DNA of 64,000 nt from Acidobacteriota bacterium (GCA_046734955.1 JBKPSH010000113.1:33518-97517); one strand, 5' to 3'; counted from the first letter of the stretch, positions 15,441 through 61,320 are shown. The notes: a model not told the origin generated them from the sequence alone. Program-made: numbers and translations.

Positions 15441-16766
15441 ATGGCAACCTCACCCTTCGTCCGCTTCCTCGCGCGAACCGCCTGCGGGTTGTTCTATCGC
15501 GCTGATTGCGTGAGCCAGCCGCCGCCATCTGGAGCGGCGCTGCTGCTGCCGAATCACCCGAACGCGCTGCTCGATCCGGCGGTGATCTGGGCAACCGCAG
15601 GACGCGATGTGCGGTTCCTTGCGAAATCAACGCTGTTTGATGGTCCGTTACGTTTTCTCGTCGCCGGGTCTGGTGCAATCCCGGTCTACCGCAAACTGGA
15701 TCAGGGGGTGGACGTTTCCAGGAACACGGAGACGTTCGCCGCAGTCGATGCCGCGCTCGCCGACGGAGATGCAATCTGCATCTTTCCCGAAGGCATCAGC
15801 CATTCATCAGGCCGTCTGGAACCGCTGCGAACCGGGGCCGCGCGGATGGCACTGAGCGCAGAGCGAGGCGGGACGCGCGTCAATCTCGTACCCGTCGGGC
15901 TCAACTTCGAACGCAAGACGACGTTTCGATCTCGCGTCACCGTCGTGTACGGTCAGCCATTCACCGGCGAGGACCTCGCGGAGACAACACGGCATCCCGA
16001 CGGCGTGCGCGAACTGACAGACCGGATCGCCGCCCGAATGCGGCGCTTGTTGATCGAAGCGGAGTCAAAGACGGATGTCGCAATTGTCGAACGCGTCGAT
16101 CGTATGTATTCCGCGGCACGTGGAGTCGGCCGCGATCCACACGAACGGCTGGTGCGGCGCCGCATCATCGCGGCTGGTATTGAGCGGCTACGCGCAACGG
16201 ATCCGCAGAGGTACGACGAGATTCTTCTTCGATTCCACCGGTATCAAAACCGCCTGGAAAGATTCGGACTTCGCGACCGCCATCTCGATTGGACCATCTC
16301 GACGCCTGATGCGGTGAAGTTCGCCGTGATGGAAGCGCTGCGCGCGATTGTTTTCGTCCCACTGGCAATCGCGGCGCTGGTGCTTTTTGCCGTTCCATAC
16401 CACCTTACCGGCTTCGCCGCGCGATGGTTCACGCGCGAGCCGGACGTCGCGGCTACGGCGAAGGTGGTCGGCGGATTCTTGATCTATAGCGCCTGGCTGG
16501 CCGCGTTGGGAGTCGCCGCTGCGGCTGCCGGCATGCCTCATCCAGTTGTGATTACGCTGGTGATCCTGCCTGCGATCGCCGTCGCCGGGCTGTTTGCGAT
16601 CGAACGCGAGTCGGCCGTCCTCGATGCGATCCGCGCATGGTTCTTGTTGACGCGAAAACGCGCCGACACGCGGGAGCGTCTCCGTCGTCGACGATCAGAA
16701 CTCGCCGATGTGCTCGATGAGGTAAATGAGTGGATGACGAAGAAGTCTGAAATTGCTGATTGTTGA
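15441..16766 (+). CDS. PlsC-family acyltransferase with C-terminal membrane domain
   Basis: ATG 15441 (MATSPFVRFLART). HX4D motif PNHPNALLD and FPEGISHS are present, with hydrophobic C-terminal segments. The upstream part of the ORF from 15384 is repeat sequence. Confidence 0.78.
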   Translation: MATSPFVRFLARTACGLFYRADCVSQPPPSGAALLLPNHPNALLDPAVIWATAGRDVRFLAKSTLFDGPLRFLVAGSGAIPVYRKLDQGVDVSRNTETFAAVDAALADGDAICIFPEGISHSSGRLEPLRTGAARMALSAERGGTRVNLVPVGLNFERKTTFRSRVTVVYGQPFTGEDLAETTRHPDGVRELTDRIAARMRRLLIEAESKTDVAIVERVDRMYSAARGVGRDPHERLVRRRIIAAGIERLRATDPQRYDEILLRFHRYQNRLERFGLRDRHLDWTISTPDAVKFAVMEALRAIVFVPLAIAALVLFAVPYHLTGFAARWFTREPDVAATAKVVGGFLIYSAWLAALGVAAAAAGMPHPVVITLVILPAIAVAGLFAIERESAVLDAIRAWFLLTRKRADTRERLRRRRSELADVLDEVNEWMTKKSEIADC

Positions 16767-16828
16767 TTGTTGATTGCTGATTTAAGAGCATCGGACTTTC
16801 AATCAGCAATCGACAATCAGCATTTTCA
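16748..16828. repeat. GCTGATT/AATCAGC heptamer hairpin between convergent genes
   Basis: The left arm is (GCTGATT GTTGATT GTTGATT GCTGATT) at 16755-16782. The right arm is AATCAGCAATCGACAATCAGCATTTTCA at 16801-16828. The element contains both flanking stop codons (16764-66 and 16826-28). Confidence 0.8.
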
Positions 16829-18898
16829 GTTCAACAGATACTGCTTAATAAACGTGATCCAGGTGTAAAACCAGAAATTGTTGTTCGCCGGTCGGGCCCA
16901 AAACGCGTGACCCTCGTCCGCGTAGATCGTCAGCCAAACCGGCACGCCATTCGCTCGCACGATTCGCGCCATCTCTTCCGCCTGCGCCGGCGGCACGCGA
17001 GTATCGTTCGCTCCGTGAACGATGAACAATGGAATGCGCAGCTTCGACGCATTCGTGATCGGTGAGATGCGCTTCAGGAAATCGCGCATCTCCGGGACCC
17101 GTTCATCCCCGTACTCCGCACGACGATCCTCCGGTCGCGTCGGATCAGTCGTCTCCAAATAGGTAATGAAGTCCGATATGCCCGCCGCTGCAAGCGCGCC
17201 GCGCAGCCGCGAGCTATACATCTCGGCGGCGGCGTAGGTCATATAGCCGCCGTAGCTGACGCCGTTTACCATGACCCGGTTCTTGTCGAGGGCCGGCTCC
17301 GTCTCAATCCAGTCGAGCAGCGCGCCGATGTCCTTTACCGAATCTTCCCGTTTCATCCCGTCATCGAGCCGACCGAAGGCCTTTCCAAAACCCCAGCTTC
17401 CCCGAACGTTCGGAAACACCAGCGCGATCCCAAGCTCGTTCAAGAGGTACGCGCTTCGTCCTTGATATCGCGGACGTTCGCGCGACGTCGGTCCGCCCGG
17501 GCCGCCGTGGATCGTAATGATGACCGGCCGCGGTCCGGTGAATCGCGCCGGCGGACGGTACAGGATTCCGGAAATCGTCAACCCGTCGAAGCTTTTCCAC
17601 CTGACGATTTCCGGTTCGGGCAAAGATTCGGGATCGAACGCGCCAAATTCGCTCTTCGTCCAACGCTCGACAGCACCTGTACGCGCATTCACGCCAAAGA
17701 CATCACCAAACGTTCGAAGTGACCAAAGCGAGAACGCGACTTCGCTGCTGTCGGACCGCCACAGCGGCGACCGTCCCAAGAGCTGACCGGCGGGAAGCTT
17801 CGGAGCCCAACGAACCTTGAAGGTGTTCGCGTCGATCAATTCGACCCGGCTGCTCGTGGTGCTATCGAACACGGCGGCGATGTTCTTGCCATCTGGAGAG
17901 AGTCCGAAGGACTCCAAATCGTCCGCCTCAGCGGTAATCGGTTTCCACGTCCCATTTGCCGGTTCGCCGCGCCACAGCCGAAGCGTCTCCGAGTCGCGGT
18001 TAGTGAGAACGTACACATATCGTCCATCCGGAGAGAAGACCGGCGATCGCCATACCGCGGGACTTCCCTCTGGACTGATCCGCGTTTTCTGACCCGACTT
18101 GAGATTGACACGCCACACCGAGGTTCGCGTGTTCTCCGACGGAGCATTGACGACCAGCAGTTCGCTATCGTCGGGGGACCAATCGGCAACGCTCCAGTTC
18201 CCCTCGACGTCGGAGACGAGCCTCGCACTCAAAGGATTCGTGGGATCCATTACCCACAGATCGCGATCGGCCCCCCCGTGTCCGCCCCGGCGTGTGGACT
18301 CGAATGCGATGAGACCCGAGCGATGTGACCACACGGGCAATCCATTACGCGACTTCCCATCAGTCAGGAGCGTCGTTTTCCTGGTCGCAAGATCGAAACG
18401 AAACAGCTGCATCGCTTCGCCGCCGCTCGTCGAGTCCTTGCTAAAGAGGACATACGCGCCGTCTGGTGAATACCAGGCGCCGACGCTTCCTGTGACGACG
18501 CCTCCCGCCGAGATGCCGGAGCCGGTCGGGAAGAACGTCAGTTGCTGCCGATCCATTCCTGGACCAGCGACCGAATGAAGCTGAAACGTGTTTCCGTCGA
18601 AGGCAGTCGTCACCAGAATCTCTCGCCGCGACGGATGCCACCCGAGCAGCAACGCCCGCCGCGATGCTGCGTATGGCGCGAGATCCTGGACGATTGAGGC
18701 GGGGATGGGCGGAAGTCCTTCAGCTTTGACGTTCGCTGGAACCGGTAGGAACTCCGCCGTGGAGTCACGGTTGGGCTCGGACCGCGGGGCCGGGGCCTGT
18801 GCGAGGACAGCAGTCGCCAAAGCTGGTCCGACGATGGCCAGGAGCGCGGCGCGGCAAAACTGAGTCATGAAAACTGACCGGGGGGGAACCGGTTTCAT
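16826..18898 (-). CDS. S9-family serine peptidase with N-terminal beta-propeller
   Basis: 690 aa. Signal peptide present. GVSYGGYM nucleophile elbow, HGANDTRVP and EGHAF triad contexts. ATG 18868 is an alternative start. Confidence 0.88.
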   Translation of the reverse strand: MKPVPPRSVFMTQFCRAALLAIVGPALATAVLAQAPAPRSEPNRDSTAEFLPVPANVKAEGLPPIPASIVQDLAPYAASRRALLLGWHPSRREILVTTAFDGNTFQLHSVAGPGMDRQQLTFFPTGSGISAGGVVTGSVGAWYSPDGAYVLFSKDSTSGGEAMQLFRFDLATRKTTLLTDGKSRNGLPVWSHRSGLIAFESTRRGGHGGADRDLWVMDPTNPLSARLVSDVEGNWSVADWSPDDSELLVVNAPSENTRTSVWRVNLKSGQKTRISPEGSPAVWRSPVFSPDGRYVYVLTNRDSETLRLWRGEPANGTWKPITAEADDLESFGLSPDGKNIAAVFDSTTSSRVELIDANTFKVRWAPKLPAGQLLGRSPLWRSDSSEVAFSLWSLRTFGDVFGVNARTGAVERWTKSEFGAFDPESLPEPEIVRWKSFDGLTISGILYRPPARFTGPRPVIITIHGGPGGPTSRERPRYQGRSAYLLNELGIALVFPNVRGSWGFGKAFGRLDDGMKREDSVKDIGALLDWIETEPALDKNRVMVNGVSYGGYMTYAAAEMYSSRLRGALAAAGISDFITYLETTDPTRPEDRRAEYGDERVPEMRDFLKRISPITNASKLRIPLFIVHGANDTRVPPAQAEEMARIVRANGVPVWLTIYADEGHAFWARPANNNFWFYTWITFIKQYLLN

Positions 18899-34452: not shown

Positions 34453-34474
34453 TCGGAGTGTGTGGGTCTATTGT

Positions 34475-34579
34475 GAATCGTGAATCACTAATCGTGGATC
34501 GTCAATCCTAAATCGCGAATCGCCGCATCGGGACTACGATTCGCGGATTCAACGATTCGCGATTAGTGATGCATGATTC
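34475..34579. repeat. Long imperfect hairpin of NAATCNN heptamers
   Basis: The left arm is seven tandem heptamers: GAATCGT GAATCAC TAATCGT GGATCGT CAATCCT AAATCGC GAATCGC (34475-34523). The right arm GATTCGCGGATTCAACGATTCGCGATTAGTGATGCATGATTC is its imperfect complement. It fills the sucB-to-topoisomerase-B spacer. Confidence 0.8.
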
Positions 34580-34584
34580 TCAAG

Positions 34585-40296: not shown

Positions 40297-42693
40297 CTAT
40301 TCCGATAACGGCTGTGGCGCGTCGGGCACTGCCCAGACGATTTTTGTGAACTGCCCGCGCTGGAGCAGCTCGCGTCCCTTCCCACCGCGGCCCGTCACTT
40401 CGTACTTGCCAGTGCTGATCGTCTGTTCGGCACCGCGACTCGTCTCGACGATCAGCATGTCGCGATCGCCACTCGACGCCACAAAGCCGAGCACACGATC
40501 TGCGTCGGACGTCAGTTTGATCAGAATGACGCCGCGTCCCGGGCCCGACAGGAAATTGACTTCCTCCACTTTGGTCAGAATCGCGCGCGCTTCGCGCGTA
40601 GCAGCAATCAGAATTTCGTCACCCGTTATTCGGGCAACGCCAACGAACTCGGCGCCATCGGCAGCTCTCGCAAACCGCCGGCCTCCCCGCGTACTCGGTT
40701 CGACGAACGGTGCAAGGCTGAACCGCAGGCTGTATCCGTCGCTCGTCACTGCCACTGCGTGCACATCCGGCACGTCACCTTCCTTGGCCGCCGTGATCTT
40801 GCCTACCACTCGCGGGTCGAGGCTCAGCGCGGCGACGATGCGCTCGCCGTCTTTCAGCTTGAAGAAGCGCTGGATTGGTTCACCGTAACCGGTGGACGCC
40901 GGGATATCCGTAATTCTGGATGTGTATGCGACGCCAAAGTTGCTGAAGAAGACAACCGAGGCACGCGTGCTCCCGGGCAGCACCGCCATGACGGTATCCC
41001 CTTCTCTGACTCGCGTCGCGGCAACATCCTTCACTTCCTTCTGCCGCTTTACCCATCCGTCGCGAGAGACGAGCACAACGTTGTCTTCTTCGACGATGAA
41101 GTCCTCGGCCGTGTACTCGGCCTCCCCTTCGTCGCTGGCAATACTTGTGCGGCGTACATCGCCGTACTTCTTCTGAATTTCCTCGATTTCAACGCGGACG
41201 ATGTCCCAGCGGCTGTCTTCGTCTTTCAAGAGCGTGTTGATTTGACGAACGCGACGACGGCGATCCTCGAGTTCCTTACGAATCAGGAGAATCTCGAGCC
41301 GTGCGAGTCGATAGATTTTCAGTTCGAGAATCGCATCGGTCTGTTCCGCATCGAGACTGAACCGCTTGATGATCTGCTGCGCCGCGTCCGCTTTGCCTTC
41401 CGACTTGCGGACGATCTTCAGGATCTCGTCGAGCGCATCGAAGACCTTCTCGAATCCTTCGAGGATGTGGACTCGTTTCTTGATCGCGGCCAGCTCGTGT
41501 TCCAGTCGCTTGGTGACGACATCGAGCCGGAAGTGCAGGAAGTGCCACAGCATCGAATGAAGATCGAGCCGCTCGGGCCGGCCGACCTCCTGGTTCTCGG
41601 TCGGGATCAGGCACGTAAGGTTGACGATGAAGCTGGTCTGGAGCGGCGTGTGTTTGAAGAGATACGCCATCACCATCTTTTCATCGGCGTCTTTCTTCAA
41701 TTCGAGCGCAATCCGCACATCGTCGGTCGATAGATCCTTGACGTCGACGAGCGGCGGCAGCTTGCGGCTGAGCGCGACCTCGGCGATGCGCTCGACCAGC
41801 GTTGCCTTGTTCACCGTGTAAGGAACGCTCGTGATGTAGATGGTTTTTCCGCTTCTGGTAACCGGGCCTTCTTCCCATGTGGCGCGCAAACGGATCGCTC
41901 CCGACCCGGTTTTGTAGATTTCCTTCAGCTCCGCCGGCGAGTTCAGCATCTGGCCGCCCGTCGGGAAGTCCGGCCCCTTCACATACCGACACAACTGCAC
42001 GCTGCTCAAATCAGCGTCGTCGAGAAGCTTGATCAGAGCCGTGCAGATTTCGTTCAGATTGTGCGGAGGAATATTGGTCGCCATGCCGACCGCGATGCCT
42101 GTCGCACCGTTGATCAGCAGGTTGGGAATTCGCGCCGGCAGGACGACCGGTTCGGTGCGGGTGCCGTCGTAATTCGGACGAAATGGTACGGTCGTTTGAT
42201 CGATTTCCGCGAGCATCTCGTCGCTGATGCGCGCCAGGCGGCATTCCGTGTACCGCATGGCTGCGGCGCTATCGCCGTCGAGCGACCCGAAGTTCCCGGA
42301 TCCATCGATCAGCGGATAGCGCAACGAAAACGGTTGGGCCATCCGAACCAGCGTTTCGTACAACGCGGAGTCACCGTGCGGGTGGTAGTTGCCCATCACG
42401 TCGCCGACCACCTTCGCGCATTTCCGGTACTTGGCATCCGCGGTGAGGTTCTGCTGCCACATCGTGTAAAGGATGCGGCGCTGCACCGGTTTCAGGCCGT
42501 CGCGGACGTCGGGGAGCGCGCGCGACGTGATGACCGAGAGTGCGTAATTGAGGTATCGGGTTTGGGCGGCTTCGTGGAGCGCCACAGCTTCCGGATCGTT
42601 CGGACCACCCGGTCCGCCCGGTCCGCGTGTATCGATAATCGCTCCGCCGTCACCGTCGAAGAGCGATGGTTCCTTCTTCCTGCGTTTGGCCAT
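40297..42693 (-). CDS. Type IIA DNA topoisomerase subunit A (ParC/GyrA family)
   Basis: 798 aa with [18 protein letters not shown] and active-site [10 protein letters not shown]. There is no QRRGGKG box after [20 protein letters not shown] motif lies near the C-terminus. Confidence 0.9.
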
Positions 42694-42710
42694 GGGAGGA
42701 GGATACCAAA

Positions 42711-43403
42711 GGAGGTCACGGAGGGAACGGAGATTAAAAACGAAGGAACGGAGGGAACGGAGACGAACGGAGAAGAATCAGTCATTGGAGAACGAAGGTG
42801 GGATCTCGTTGGACCGAGCCGCCTCTGCCCCGGGATCAGCGCTCCTGGCCATGTCGGGATTGAGAATCCGTTTCACTCCATCCTTCAGAACAGGCACATT
42901 GAAATTGATTAAGAGGCCGACTGGTTTGCGGGAGAGTTTCAGGTAGGTGAGCATTTGCGCCGTATGAATCGGCGATAGTGTCTCCACGGACTTCAATTCC
43001 ACGATCACCGTATCGTCGACGAGTAGATCTGCTCGATATCCGGCCTCAAGATGAATGCCCCAATACACCAGCGGAATCGGCCACTGGGTGACGACGGCCA
43101 GTCCGGATTGCCGTAATTCGAATACAACACAAGGTGAATAGACCGATTCGAGCAGTCCGGGTCCAGTCGCGCGATGGACTCTGATCGCGGCGCCGATAAT
43201 GGTACTGGTAAGGCGATTCGTGCTGAACGGATGGTAAGCATGTGTCGGGAAGCTGCAAGCGATCTGCCGCCGCGCAACCCTTTGGATTTGGATGTTTGGA
43301 TCACAAAGTACGCAGAAACTCCTGTTTGGTCAGCGGCAATGACAGAAAAATCTTCGTTCGTCTCCGTTATCTCCGTTCCTTCGTTGTGAACTCCGTTACC
43401 TCC
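42711..43403. mobile_element. Inverted-repeat-bounded GxxExxY cassette 1 (putative insertion module)
   Basis: IR-L at 42711-42785 (GGAGGTCACGGAG..ACGAAGGAACGGAGGGAACGGAGACGAACGGAG..GTCATT) matches the reverse complement of IR-R at 43338-43403. The interior is visibly lower in GC than the flanks. Total length is 693 bp. Confidence 0.5.
42778..43241 (-). pseudogene. GxxExxY (PD-(D/E)xK, PDDEXK_3-like) protein, start lost or frameshifted
   Basis: The frame is open from 43329. It encodes LTSTIIGAAIRVHRATGPGLLESVY...DLLVDDTVIVELK. The first in-frame ATG/GTG/TTG is GTG 43068, in mid-domain. The only upstream ATG (43241) is in a frame shifted by one nucleotide relative to the domain. Confidence 0.6.
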
Positions 43404-43413
43404 GAGGCCGCCT

Positions 43414-44328
43414 ATGCTTCTCCGTTATCTCCACCTCGATGTGTTCACCGACACTCCCTTCGAAGGAAATCAGCTGGCCGTGTTCCCGGAGCCGCATGGC
43501 CTCGACACCACCATGATGCAGACGATCACCCGCGAGATGAACTTCTCCGAGTGCACGTTCATCTTTCCCCCGGAACGCGGTGGAGATGTGAAGATGCGCA
43601 TCTTCACACCCGGCGAAGAACTGCCGATGGCCGGCCATCCGACGATTGGATCGACCTTCGCGCTTGCCATCGAGGGCACTATCGCACGAGGGCGCACCGA
43701 CTTCGTCTTCGAACTCGGTGTCGGGCCGACGCCGGTTTCGCTCGAGTGGAAAGACGGCACCCTGTCGTTCGCCTGGATGACGCAGCAGCTGCCGAACTTT
43801 GGCCCGGTCGTTCGTGATCGCCAGGCACTCGCGAGTGCTATTGGCGTCAGCGAATCAGATCTGGCGGGGAATCTGCCGGCGCAGGTCGTATCCTGCGGCG
43901 TGCCGTTTGTGTTCGTCGCGCTAGGATCTCGGGACGCGGTCGATTCAGTGTCGATCGATCGCAAGGGGCTCGCTCGTTGCTATGACGAGAGCGGCATCGA
44001 AGAGATCCCAACCTTCTTCTTCACAACCGCCGGCAAGCAGGAGACTGGCGCGGCACAAACCGTCTACAGCCGCATGCTCGCCGCGTCTTTTGGAATTGCC
44101 GAGGACCCTGCCACCGGTGGCGCAAGCGGGCCGCTCGGGTGTTATCTGCTTCAGTACAAGTTGGTGACGCCGGACGCGGCGAAGAACATTCTGAGCCTGC
44201 AGGGCGTACTGATGAAACGCCCGAGCCGCCTTCACATCTCCGTCGACAGCGCGAACGGCGCCATCACACGCGTGCGCGTCGGTGGCCGCTCGGTCCTGGT
44301 TGGCCGTGGGGAACTCAACGCGAGCTAA
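43414..44328 (+). CDS. PhzF-family isomerase
   Basis: 304 aa with MLLRYLHLDVFTDTPFEGNQLAVF and GHPTIGS. Confidence 0.88.
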   Translation: MLLRYLHLDVFTDTPFEGNQLAVFPEPHGLDTTMMQTITREMNFSECTFIFPPERGGDVKMRIFTPGEELPMAGHPTIGSTFALAIEGTIARGRTDFVFELGVGPTPVSLEWKDGTLSFAWMTQQLPNFGPVVRDRQALASAIGVSESDLAGNLPAQVVSCGVPFVFVALGSRDAVDSVSIDRKGLARCYDESGIEEIPTFFFTTAGKQETGAAQTVYSRMLAASFGIAEDPATGGASGPLGCYLLQYKLVTPDAAKNILSLQGVLMKRPSRLHISVDSANGAITRVRVGGRSVLVGRGELNAS

Positions 44329-50737: not shown

Positions 50738-51085
50738 ATGATGAAACAGCGGTTGTGTGATGTGAATTCGGCGGCAGTTGCGAAACTGCCGCAGCAGACC
50801 GACGACAAGTCGGGAATCGGCGTCCACTACGTCGACGCGTACATCAAGCCGATGAACGTGAAGCTCGAGAACGGCACCGCGGTCAAGTGCAAGCGGCGCG
50901 GTTTGAAGATCGTGTTGACGGTGGGCACCAAGAAGGGGGAAGGGCTCATGCGACGGCTCGCCGTCAGTCCGGATCCGGTGGTGATGCTGGACGCGGCGCT
51001 GCAGGAAGCGGCGAAGGGAGCGGGGGCGGAGCTGATCGTGGAGAGCGGAACAATGTATCTGAAATTGCTGAATGCTGATTGTTGA
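50738..51085 (+). CDS. Hypothetical protein
   Basis: 115 aa from ATG 50738 with coding-like third-position GC. The last codons (LLNADC*) lie inside the GCTGATT repeat. Confidence 0.45.
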   Translation: MMKQRLCDVNSAAVAKLPQQTDDKSGIGVHYVDAYIKPMNVKLENGTAVKCKRRGLKIVLTVGTKKGEGLMRRLAVSPDPVVMLDAALQEAAKGAGAELIVESGTMYLKLLNADC

Positions 51086-51136
51086 TTGGCTAAAACCAAT
51101 CAATCAGAAATCAGCAATCGACAATCAGCAATTTCA
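51060..51136. repeat. GCTGATT/AATCAGC heptamer hairpin, copy 2
   Basis: TGAAATTGCTGAATGCTGATTGTTGATTGG, loop CTAAAA, then CCAATCAATCAGAAATCAGCAATCGACAATCAGCAATTTCA. It lies between convergent stops at 51085 and 51141. Confidence 0.8.
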
Positions 51137-58609: not shown

Positions 58610-58636
58610 CCGGGTTCGCTCAAATCAACGTCTTCT

Positions 58637-59319
58637 ACTGTCACACTGCGACCTTACCTAGAGACTGGAACGGAGAAGGAAGAAAGGAGAACCAATTCTT
58701 TTCTCCCCTACTTCCGGTGGCAAAAACTGCAACCCCGCCGGCACGGACCCATTGCAGAAACTGAAACACTAACCGCAAAAGCTCTGGAGATTCCTAAGTT
58801 CCCGAATAGATTTTCAGTCGGCGAAGTCCTTGCAACGCAACAACGCATGTTCAGAGACATCGCCGGCCACGAAGATCTGACGGAAGCCATTATTGGCTGT
58901 GCCATGCGTGTGCACGAACACTGGGGACCAGGCTTACTCGAATCTGTCTACAAGGCATGCCTGGTTGTTGAACTCAAGGCAGAGGGGCACCGAGTGAATA
59001 CGAACCTCAGAGTTCCATTCATTTACAAGGGCCGCGATCTCAAGACGGACTTCTGTCCAGACTTGATCATCGACGACATCGTGGTTGGTGAACTGAAGGT
59101 CGTCGAGAAACTTGCGCCGGTCCACAAAGCGCAAGTGGTCACGTATCTAAAGTTGACGCGCCTACCAGTGGGCTTGCTGATGAACTTCAATGTCCCGTTG
59201 CTCAAACAGGTGACTCACCGCATCGTACGGCCGGATTCACTGATTAGAAGCGAATAGCCTCCATTCTCCCTTCTCCTTTCTCCTTTTCTGGCTCTAAGTC
59301 ATGATCGCAGTGTGACTGT
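58637..59319. mobile_element. Inverted-repeat-bounded GxxExxY cassette 2 (putative insertion module)
   Basis: IR-L at 58637-58693 (ACTGTCACACTGCGACCTTACCTAGAGACTGGAACGGAGAAGGAAGAAAGGAGAACC) matches the reverse complement of IR-R at 59259-59319. Total length is 683 bp and the interior is lower in GC. Confidence 0.5.
58847..59257 (+). CDS. GxxExxY (PD-(D/E)xK, PDDEXK_3-like) protein
   Basis: 136 aa with LTEAIIGCAMRVHEHWGPGLLESVY and DLIIDDIVVGELKVV. Confidence 0.8.
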   Translation: MFRDIAGHEDLTEAIIGCAMRVHEHWGPGLLESVYKACLVVELKAEGHRVNTNLRVPFIYKGRDLKTDFCPDLIIDDIVVGELKVVEKLAPVHKAQVVTYLKLTRLPVGLLMNFNVPLLKQVTHRIVRPDSLIRSE

Positions 59320-59344
59320 GAAGGTGCCGAGGTGAGTTTTCCTT

Positions 59345-61292: not shown

Positions 61293-61320
61293 AATCAGCA
61301 ATCAGCAATCAGCATTTTCA
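61293..61320. repeat. Solo AATCAGC arm
   Basis: AATCAGCAATCAGCAATCAGCATTTTCA. Its TCA is the lacI-family stop codon. It fills most of the spacer to the GH97 start. Confidence 0.75.

Follow-up and report, generated by a model that had tools for sequence, protein, structure and literature searches.

A GxxExxY nuclease gene enclosed by a long inverted repeat (cassette 1) was found between a topoisomerase A gene and phzF in the window, that is, the whole 64-kb stretch of acidobacterial DNA that was analysed. Comparison across loci showed that such arms are a trait of the GxxExxY family, and that arms and gene are gained, lost and relocated as one unit. With a confidence that falls just short of even, cassette 1 is read here as an insertion-type module in which the nuclease gene is combined with its cognate inverted repeat, one case of a widespread partnership between such nucleases and palindromes made of RCRRAG units. 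The copy in the window was most likely an inactive, vertically inherited relic with arms that are still conserved, because its gene is frameshifted and has long been resident at the locus. The features of this cassette and of a second one in the window were as follows.

42707–43416, minus strand: complete cassette 1, comprising one arm, the GxxExxY gene, its leader and the other arm, from the inverted-repeat alignment, gene calls and empty sites in relatives
42707–42787, no strand assigned: left arm, the 3' arm in the sense of the gene, from the inverted-repeat alignment
42778–43241, minus strand: GxxExxY (TIGR04256/PF13366) PD-(D/E)XK nuclease gene, frameshifted, from profile matches and orthologue comparison
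43242–43336, minus strand: leader, about 95 nt long, that separates the ATG from the 5' arm, from orthologue comparison
43337–43416, no strand assigned: right arm, the 5' arm in the sense of the gene, from the inverted-repeat alignment
58632–59323, plus strand: cassette 2, from the arm alignment, the intact ORF and the neighbour domains
58632–58691 and 59264–59323, no strand assigned: arms of cassette 2, from the inverted-repeat alignment
58847–59257, plus strand: intact GxxExxY ORF of cassette 2, from translation and profile matches

The arms of cassette 1 (42707–42787 and 43337–43416) were identical in 65 of 80 aligned columns, with one 1-nt gap. Their local alignment score was 79, and 1000 dinucleotide-preserving shuffles of the purine-rich arm gave 18.8 ± 3.4, with a maximum of 39. 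An inverted repeat of about 70 nt around the ORF had been described in the sequence-only reading; it proved to be real and slightly longer, and the shuffled purine-rich controls named there scored far lower. The 16-nt versus 6-nt "insertion" that had been proposed within the arms was not retained, because a 1-nt indel and two mismatches gave a better alignment. Each arm was a tandem array of 9–10-nt units (AACGGAG or AACGAAG plus a spacer) around TTCACA. The left arm was pyrimidine-rich on the gene's strand, with 9–10-nt units of the CTCCGTT type, and its inner end overlapped the stop codon (42778–42780) and the last two codons of the GxxExxY gene, as had been claimed. The right arm contained ACGRAG units and the TTCACA motif, and its outer end overlapped the start codon of phzF.

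Cassette 1 was flanked by a DNA_topoisoIV/gyrase-A-type gene (minus strand, start at 42693) and a PhzC-PhzF gene (plus strand, start at 43414), and the domain matches to both agreed with the location given before. Since the cassette lies between these divergent genes, the unit fills almost the whole intergenic spacer. The GC content was 0.51–0.57 inside the cassette and 0.59–0.65 in the flanks, in accordance with the AT-richer interior reported earlier. Likewise, no target-site duplication was found at the cassettes, and none had been seen before. The leader differed from one orthologue to another, apart from short motifs (CTGCGNAC, TTTGCA). Inside the cassettes, no consensus promoters or terminators were found. 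One arm of cassette 1 now lies directly upstream of a -10-like motif preceding the topoisomerase gene, and the other lies at the phzF start. The 5' coding sequence of phzF (CTCCGTTATCTCC) also resembled an arm unit, which was probably coincidental because the stretch encodes the conserved residues LRYLH.

The GxxExxY gene of cassette 1 extended from an ATG at 43241–43239 to a stop codon at 42780–42778. All close relatives begin with ATG CTN ACN GAY CCN (MLTDPF...), and the window reads ATG CTT ACC ATC CGT. A 1-nt deletion between 43233 and 43232 produced a frameshift after codon 3, and there was no in-frame start. Contigs of two soil-metagenome runs, which may share the source population of the window, spanned the deletion site with no indel. 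Judging from the comparison with relatives, the gene is probably a pseudogene. The remainder of the frame was open, so it looks like a recent inactivation. The frameshift, the tandem 9–10-nt arm units and the ORF-less hairpins with the same arms (see below) had all been overlooked in the sequence-only reading.

The frame of cassette 1 matched TIGR04256 (E = 6e-42) and PF13366 (E = 5e-40). Both cassette proteins were above the cut-offs, with 142.6 and 135.2 bits for a cut-off of 35, and 137 and 131.8 bits for a cut-off of 22. The motifs were GLLESVY, RADLLVDD and VELK in cassette 1, and GLLESVY, PDLIIDD and GELK in cassette 2. In an alignment of 46 sequences, the residues E32, D72, E82, K84, H23, H93 and Q96-x3-Y100 were invariant, which is the motif set of RecB, Cas4 and lambda exonuclease. 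The AF2 model (pLDDT 84.6) had its best PDB fold matches, which were weak (E 2e-3, TM 0.48), with lambda exonuclease, LHK-Exo and Cas4 SSO0001. The protein is thus predicted to be a minimal PD-(D/E)XK enzyme of about 125 residues, similar to RecB, Cas4 and lambda exonuclease. The same alignment contained a single invariant Cys and no Fe-S cysteine set. In addition, two-domain GxxExxY fusions exist, which suggests that the protein acts as a dimer. PF13366 was the only domain found, with neither a HuH/Y1 transposase (Y1_Tnp) nor a GIY-YIG domain. A sequence search of the PDB gave no relative of the protein, the PADLOC defence models gave no match, and the neighbourhoods examined held no conserved partner gene, cas genes or helicase partners. 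The GxxExxY/PF13366 family comprises 15,373 clusters at 50% identity. Only 2 GxxExxY loci were present in the viral-contig collection, and this near-absence indicates that it is not a phage gene.

A second unit had been placed at 58637–59319; it was present at 58632–59323, with significant arms and an intact ORF. Its arms were identical at 48 of 59 positions, with a score of 51 compared with 14.4 ± 2.1 in shuffles. Cassette 2 filled the spacer between the convergent ends of the Lar_N-domain and GH97 genes.

The survey of the family was performed on 80 metagenomic loci encoding GxxExxY relatives, of which 66 were evaluable (at least 150 nt on both sides). An inverted repeat, defined by blastn at E ≤ 1e-3 over at least 24 nt, bracketed the gene in 48 of the 66 evaluable loci (73%), so that the earlier question of whether other GxxExxY copies carry inverted repeats is answered positively. 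In the 48 bracketed loci, the arms had a median length of 40 nt and 88% identity, and the median gap was 427 nt, approximately the ORF plus short leaders. The purine-rich arm was on the 5' side in 44 of them. Runs of at least three RCRRAG units occurred within 300 nt of the gene in 65 of all 80 loci (81%), counting the forms ACGGAG, CGCAGAG, CACAGAG and CACAAAG in units of 8–10 nt. Elsewhere, 8 such runs were found in 684 kb not selected for GxxExxY, and shuffles gave none; three of the 8 were inside GxxExxY cassettes and one was a lone arm at a vacated site.

The same layout was found in cultured bacteria of other phyla. In Bacteroides finegoldii (protein WP_032839887), the order was radA, then TTCACCACAGAGGACGCAGAGGACACGGAG, the ORF and the reverse complement, then a FAD-dependent gene. 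The cassette of Bernardetia lay between ade and a mannose-1-phosphate guanylyltransferase gene, and that of Gemmatirosa had a hairpin-ORF-hairpin layout. Cultured Bacteroides, Bernardetia and Gemmatirosa had arms of one design, TTCACC plus RCRGAG units, to the left and right of the gene. The cassette of Sphingomonas was located between fabD and fabG-acpP; only its upstream arm was clear, and the inverted-repeat score was not significant. Four distant family members (31–39% identity) had no significant inverted repeat, and two of these four carried direct repeats instead of inverted ones. In some loci, the gene lay between complete hairpins and not inside one. Moreover, a PIN/antitoxin pair was separated by the same repeats in one organism, which indicates that the repeats are not exclusive to GxxExxY, and small genes were separated by the same repeat at locus L026. 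Protein clades and arm types partly co-varied.

The orthologous cassette was present in the phzF/topoisomerase spacer of six metagenomic contigs (L003–L007 and L041), with a protein identity of 72–85%. A more divergent copy (53% protein identity) occupied the same site with the same arm type in L032 and in the genome locus L130. Replacement of the cassette was considered for these two loci, but ordinary divergence explains them equally well, L032 branching as sister to the cassette-1 clade. The scan for empty sites, with one genome per species and a PhzF alignment required, gave about 22 Acidobacteriota/Vicinamibacterales genomes that keep the divergent topoisomerase/phzF pair with a spacer of 87–570 nt and no GxxExxY gene. 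Empty sites in related strains, which had been suggested as a check, were thereby found. One of the vacant loci, L081, ranks with the closest relatives of the window that were found (amino-acid identity of 95% for the topoisomerase and 87% for PhzF). Therefore, occupied and empty sites are interleaved among relatives.

Furthermore, the cassette-1 element occurred at other locations. In L002 it adjoined a gene for a large membrane protein; arms, leader and ORF were the same there, and the protein was 76% identical. In L008 and L012 it was found in contexts with neither topoisomerase nor phzF. The relatives of cassette 2 at the Lar_N/GH97 site (79–85% identity) retained the arms, and those at a second site (72% identity) had a TonB gene on one side and a molybdopterin oxidoreductase/cytochrome c pair on the other. 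No excised or joined forms were present among the contigs of three DNA runs, in which the depth was only 2–4x. The cassette had previously been proposed to be either a mobile insertion cassette or a processed RNA unit; the empty sites and the several locations support the mobile part, and the part concerning an RNA unit was not established.

The mechanism of such a module may be outlined by analogy with RAYT-REP and Ssn-NTS, from which the steps of folding, recognition and cutting are taken. The arms, or short ORF-less hairpins, would fold into a stem when the DNA is exposed as a single strand, either at the replication fork or in the course of uptake or repair. A GxxExxY dimer might then recognise the repeated units of its own arms and cut there. 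Such cutting could spread or maintain the hairpins and move the module. Over more than 1 substitution per synonymous site, the cassette-1 element has remained at a single locus with its arms and ORF conserved, and this long residence is more readily explained by domestication, a host function or an RNA function than by continuing transposition.

Pairing between the arms was conserved. Across nine ACGRAG-type cassettes, 93.9% of the cells of a 49-pair stem were paired. Both-side changes occurred at 11 pairs compared with 5.2 ± 1.6 in shuffles, and none of 500 shuffles reached 11. This excess indicates that the complementarity of the arms has been maintained through evolution. The maintained pairing fits either RNA or single-stranded DNA. 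An RNA-level module similar to an intervening sequence has to be considered, which we regard as rather unlikely. In this explanation, a stem of 50–80 bp in a read-through transcript would be cut by RNase III or would mask the start region, so that the nuclease mRNA is excised or insulated, its translation is limited and the flanking operon is spared; it is compatible with separate mobility at the DNA level. The covariation of the arms speaks for it, as do the predicted minimum-free-energy and centroid folds of the single strands, which close both cassettes by a terminal stem (z = -4.7 and -4.6). The cassettes also lie within tight co-directional strings such as fabD/X/fabG-acpP, where a polar insertion would be harmful, and 43 of 58 upstream neighbours and 38 of 54 downstream neighbours were co-oriented.

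Also in its favour, RNA containing an arm was present in a soil metatranscriptome, in which one contig spanned the right arm and the phzF start; the loose end of this contig was an adapter, and it therefore gives no processing site. None of the RNA runs searched held the cassette. A slight G·U excess on the sense strand (22 compared with 11) speaks for this explanation, but the G·U versus A·C mismatches did not give a significant transcript strand in either data set: G·U-compatible mismatches numbered 60 on the gene's strand and 45 on the opposite strand in 33 loci (p = 0.17), and 22 and 11, respectively, within the clade (p = 0.08). The transition mismatches of cassette 1 in the window were A·C on the gene's strand, which favours the opposite strand. 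Moreover, the arms were conserved in sequence and unit structure, beyond what pairing alone requires, and a stem in an mRNA leaves high-copy ORF-less hairpins and hairpin-ORF-hairpin layouts unexplained. No Rfam family was found: the window had no match at gathering thresholds, rRNA included, and 15 related loci gave only chance-level or unrelated matches.

Hairpins with no ORF were found in several vacant topoisomerase/phzF spacers. Short hairpins were present in L083, L092 and L145, and the spacer of L081 held a half-element with arms homologous to those of cassette 2 (TGTCACNCTGCGA...GGAGAAGGGAGAAGGGAGAAC); the ORF-less hairpins of L081 and L083 were both homologous to cassette-2 arms. Further vacant spacers contained inverted arrays of different heptamers, and L099 retained a lone arm of the CTCCGTT type. 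In Gemmatirosa kalamazoonensis, the hairpin flanking the GxxExxY gene occurred in at least 79 places on two megaplasmids, with about six in a 50-kb sample, and the ORF with its leader was single-copy at the DNA level. Thus, hairpins that share the arms and have no ORF can become numerous on their own, with only one copy of the gene present. No ORF-less copies of the arm type of either cassette were seen in the 64-kb window.

These hairpins are relevant to a second explanation, namely that GxxExxY is a selfish gene homing into or next to pre-existing REP-like host hairpins by cutting and repair copying, with the arms as its target. It would account for the arm sequences shared by ORF-less hairpins, for their excess over the gene in Gemmatirosa, for the other hairpins that are nested within the 3' regions in L002 and L005, and for a protein as divergent as that of L032/L130 (53% identity) occupying this site between arms of the same type. 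Nevertheless, arms of the cassette-1 type almost never occurred apart from the ORF in 684 kb of related genomes, arms, leader and ORF recurred together at an unrelated site, and the partial co-variation of protein clades and arm types also argues against it. The divergence of L032 has the ordinary explanation given above. Homing into host palindromes is accordingly considered unlikely.

The GxxExxY protein was under strong purifying selection, with a dN/dS of 0.04–0.13 among syntenic orthologues, for which the synonymous sites were saturated (pS 0.55–0.79). Judged by eye, the arms were largely conserved between orthologues, and the leader and the 3' tail were full of indels. This selection, the long-standing synteny and the conservation of the arms at the topoisomerase/phzF site would all be expected if GxxExxY were an ordinary, non-mobile gene of the host, its inverted repeat regulatory and the empty sites simple deletions. 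However, near-identical units of arm plus ORF were found at unrelated sites for both cassette types, occupied and empty sites were interleaved among close relatives, different hairpin types occupied the same spacer across genomes, and cassettes were wedged into housekeeping operons in four phyla, which makes this explanation improbable. An integron-type gene cassette with arms as attC-like recombination sites could draw on the ability of the imperfect palindromes to fold as single strands and on the small genes separated by the same repeat at L026, but it was excluded with hardly any probability left, since array, integrase and attC cores are all missing: the units are solitary, among housekeeping genes and separated by more than 15 kb, they almost always enclose GxxExxY, the arm sequences have no RYYYAAC/GTTRRRY cores and no integrase adjoined any locus examined.

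The insertion-type module of nuclease gene and cognate repeat was therefore compared with known systems. The GxxExxY gene family is already known; as far as the literature was searched, no description of its pairing with its own hairpin repeats and no account of the flanking repeats or the function of GxxExxY/PF13366/TIGR04256 was found. The arm architecture gives this large family, whose genes sit tightly among housekeeping genes across many phyla, a concrete candidate substrate: its own arms. We propose, as a possibility that is more tentative than the reading of cassette 1 itself, that GxxExxY and RCRRAG-unit palindromes form a phylum-spanning third counterpart, based on PD-(D/E)XK, to RAYT-REP (HuH) and Ssn-NTS (GIY-YIG), in which each paralogue, acting as a DNA nuclease specific for both structure and sequence, would recognise its own tandem-unit arms and drive the spread, maintenance or excision of hairpins. 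If this is true, a class of palindromes between genes, and of insertion/deletion polymorphisms, would be accounted for in Acidobacteriota, Bacteroidota, Gemmatimonadota and other phyla, and it would mark the turnover of promoter regions at sites like topoisomerase/phzF. In addition, it would provide a function for this family, which has more than 15,000 protein clusters, and could be a source of programmable sequence- and structure-specific hairpin nucleases as laboratory tools.

Several systems share single properties with the cassettes. The intervening sequences of 23S rRNA, like cassette 1, carry a small ORF in the loop of a long inverted-repeat stem; their ORF encodes an S23p/four-helix-bundle protein (PF05635), whereas that of the cassette belongs to PF13366 and the window contains no rRNA. 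MITEs (Correia/NEMIS, ERIC) resemble the ORF-less hairpins in being short, intergenic, of inverted-repeat form and co-transcribed with their neighbours, and the ORF-less relatives may qualify as MITE/Correia-type elements. Unlike MITEs, the cassettes carry an ORF, have no TA or other target duplication and have arms that are arrays of tandem units. The Cas4/RecB family shares the E, D, ExK and QxxxY motifs with GxxExxY, and Cas4 and lambda exonuclease were the best structural neighbours; Cas4 has a four-cysteine Fe-S cluster and a cas neighbourhood, while GxxExxY, with about 125 residues, has neither. The IS200/IS605 elements combine a Y1 TnpA with subterminal hairpins, whereas the cassettes encode PF13366 and their ends form one long inverted repeat.

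The REP/RAYT (TnpA-REP) system is closer. Like the cassettes, it has a small nuclease gene with a palindromic repeat on either side, in inverted orientation; this gene is present in one or a few copies, vertically inherited and under purifying selection, and target duplications are absent. Furthermore, as in Gemmatirosa, ORF-less hairpins can be present at high copy number in the same genome. The enzyme of REP/RAYT is a HuH Y1 transposase, whereas GxxExxY is a PD-(D/E)XK nuclease of RecB/Cas4 type. The REPs are 20–40 nt long and GTAG/CGTC-tagged, in contrast to GxxExxY arms of 25–80 nt with tandem 8–10-nt RCRRAG units; no GTAG/CGTC tag was seen in the arms, which begin with TTCACC, AACC or GGAGG. 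GxxExxY also differs in having several divergent paralogues per genome with their own arm types (two in the window), and a repeat population was not evident for the arm types of the window.

In the Ssn system (GIY-YIG), nuclease genes are flanked by their own target hairpins, and the hairpin is cut as single-stranded DNA (PMC11893778). Of the ssnA regions, 71% had at least one repeat and 42% were flanked on both sides (PMC11893778), compared with 81% (65/80) and 73% (48/66), respectively, for GxxExxY. The Ssn-NTS/SRM and GxxExxY systems have in common the repeat-gene-repeat layout, an own repeat variant for each homologue and dispersed hairpins. The Ssn nuclease superfamily is unrelated to GxxExxY, and its activity has been demonstrated, while that of GxxExxY is a prediction. 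Unlike Ssn-NTS, the GxxExxY repeats contain internal tandem units, and in the simple form the gene lies inside one long palindrome. The cassette belongs to neither RAYT-REP nor Ssn-NTS, because neither a HuH nor a GIY-YIG fold is present and the arms consist of arrayed tandem units. The comparison places GxxExxY beside these two nuclease families, which are independently paired with genomic hairpin repeats.

The sequence TGNTATCCT upstream of the topoisomerase-A gene resembled an extended -10 element and was conserved in occupied and empty relatives, that is, with the cassette in the topoisomerase/phzF spacer or with the same gene pair and no GxxExxY gene. In the window, the outer end of cassette 1 lay immediately upstream of this motif, which was placed as follows:

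Window 42700-42708, minus strand: extended -10-like motif, TGGTATCCT, 7-9 nt upstream of the ATG of the topoisomerase-A gene

Because the motif is so near the ATG, the topoisomerase-A mRNA may be leaderless in the cassette-bearing clade. On the other side of the spacer, the empty-site genomes (L081-L092, L145) had in common a conserved AATGCACCTTG(C), located upstream of phzF at a distance of about 40-60 nt; this motif may be a promoter or operator. The window lacks this motif, and its cassette arm lies directly against the phzF start; therefore, the phzF expression signals must differ in cassette-bearing genomes.

The GxxExxY family also included proteins of 250-295 aa with two GxxExxY domains in tandem (P0062, P0066, P0067, P0122, P0124 and others); this arrangement is a hint that single-domain members function as dimers. 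A further copy was found in Sphingomonas parapaucimobilis:

L164 1171-1599: GxxExxY gene between fabD and fabG-acpP

The spacers flanking it were 33 nt and 2 nt, and its reading frame appeared to continue into the would-be 3' arm. The Gemmatirosa copy (L163 1195-1585), like that of cassette 1, may be frameshifted, since its tblastn match was split in two pieces.

In locus L026 (557-1804), an antitoxin-like small ORF and a probable PIN-domain ORF, both labeled from the sequence by eye and not by profile search, were flanked on either side by a copy of the pyrimidine-type repeat found 3' of the GxxExxY gene, and a further copy followed the pair. The compared locus L016 (753-830) was without these ORFs. 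Thus, the repeats can bracket small genes other than GxxExxY. Moreover, second-type hairpins of CGCAGAG units were nested in the cassette-1-type elements of L002 (3490-3630) and L005 (2577-2811), in the stretch that separates the stop codon from the 3' arm, indicating that hairpin elements insert into one another.

About 2 kb upstream of the GxxExxY cassette in L048, two mutually inverted matches to Acido-Lenti-1 RNA (147-192 and 778-823), both exceeding the gathering score, coincided with an 84-nt inverted repeat. In the soil metatranscriptome X18, five RNA contigs matched the arm sequence alone (window 43352-43405) and then ran into unrelated flanks, which indicates that other loci with ACGGAG-type arms are transcribed in soil communities.

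Hairpins with tandem-heptamer arms and no ORF also occurred in the window:

Window 16747-16829: ORF-less hairpin between convergent gene ends
Window 51060-51136: ORF-less hairpin between convergent gene ends
Window 34471-34583: ORF-less hairpin
Window 61297-61310: half-site

Their arm heptamers were GATTGTT/GATTGCT ... CAATCAG, and one family was common to two of the three hairpins. Similar inverted heptamer arrays filled the topoisomerase/phzF spacer of loci L103 and L105. In their placement between convergent gene ends, the hairpins at 16747-16829 and 51060-51136 were like bidirectional terminators or REP-like elements.
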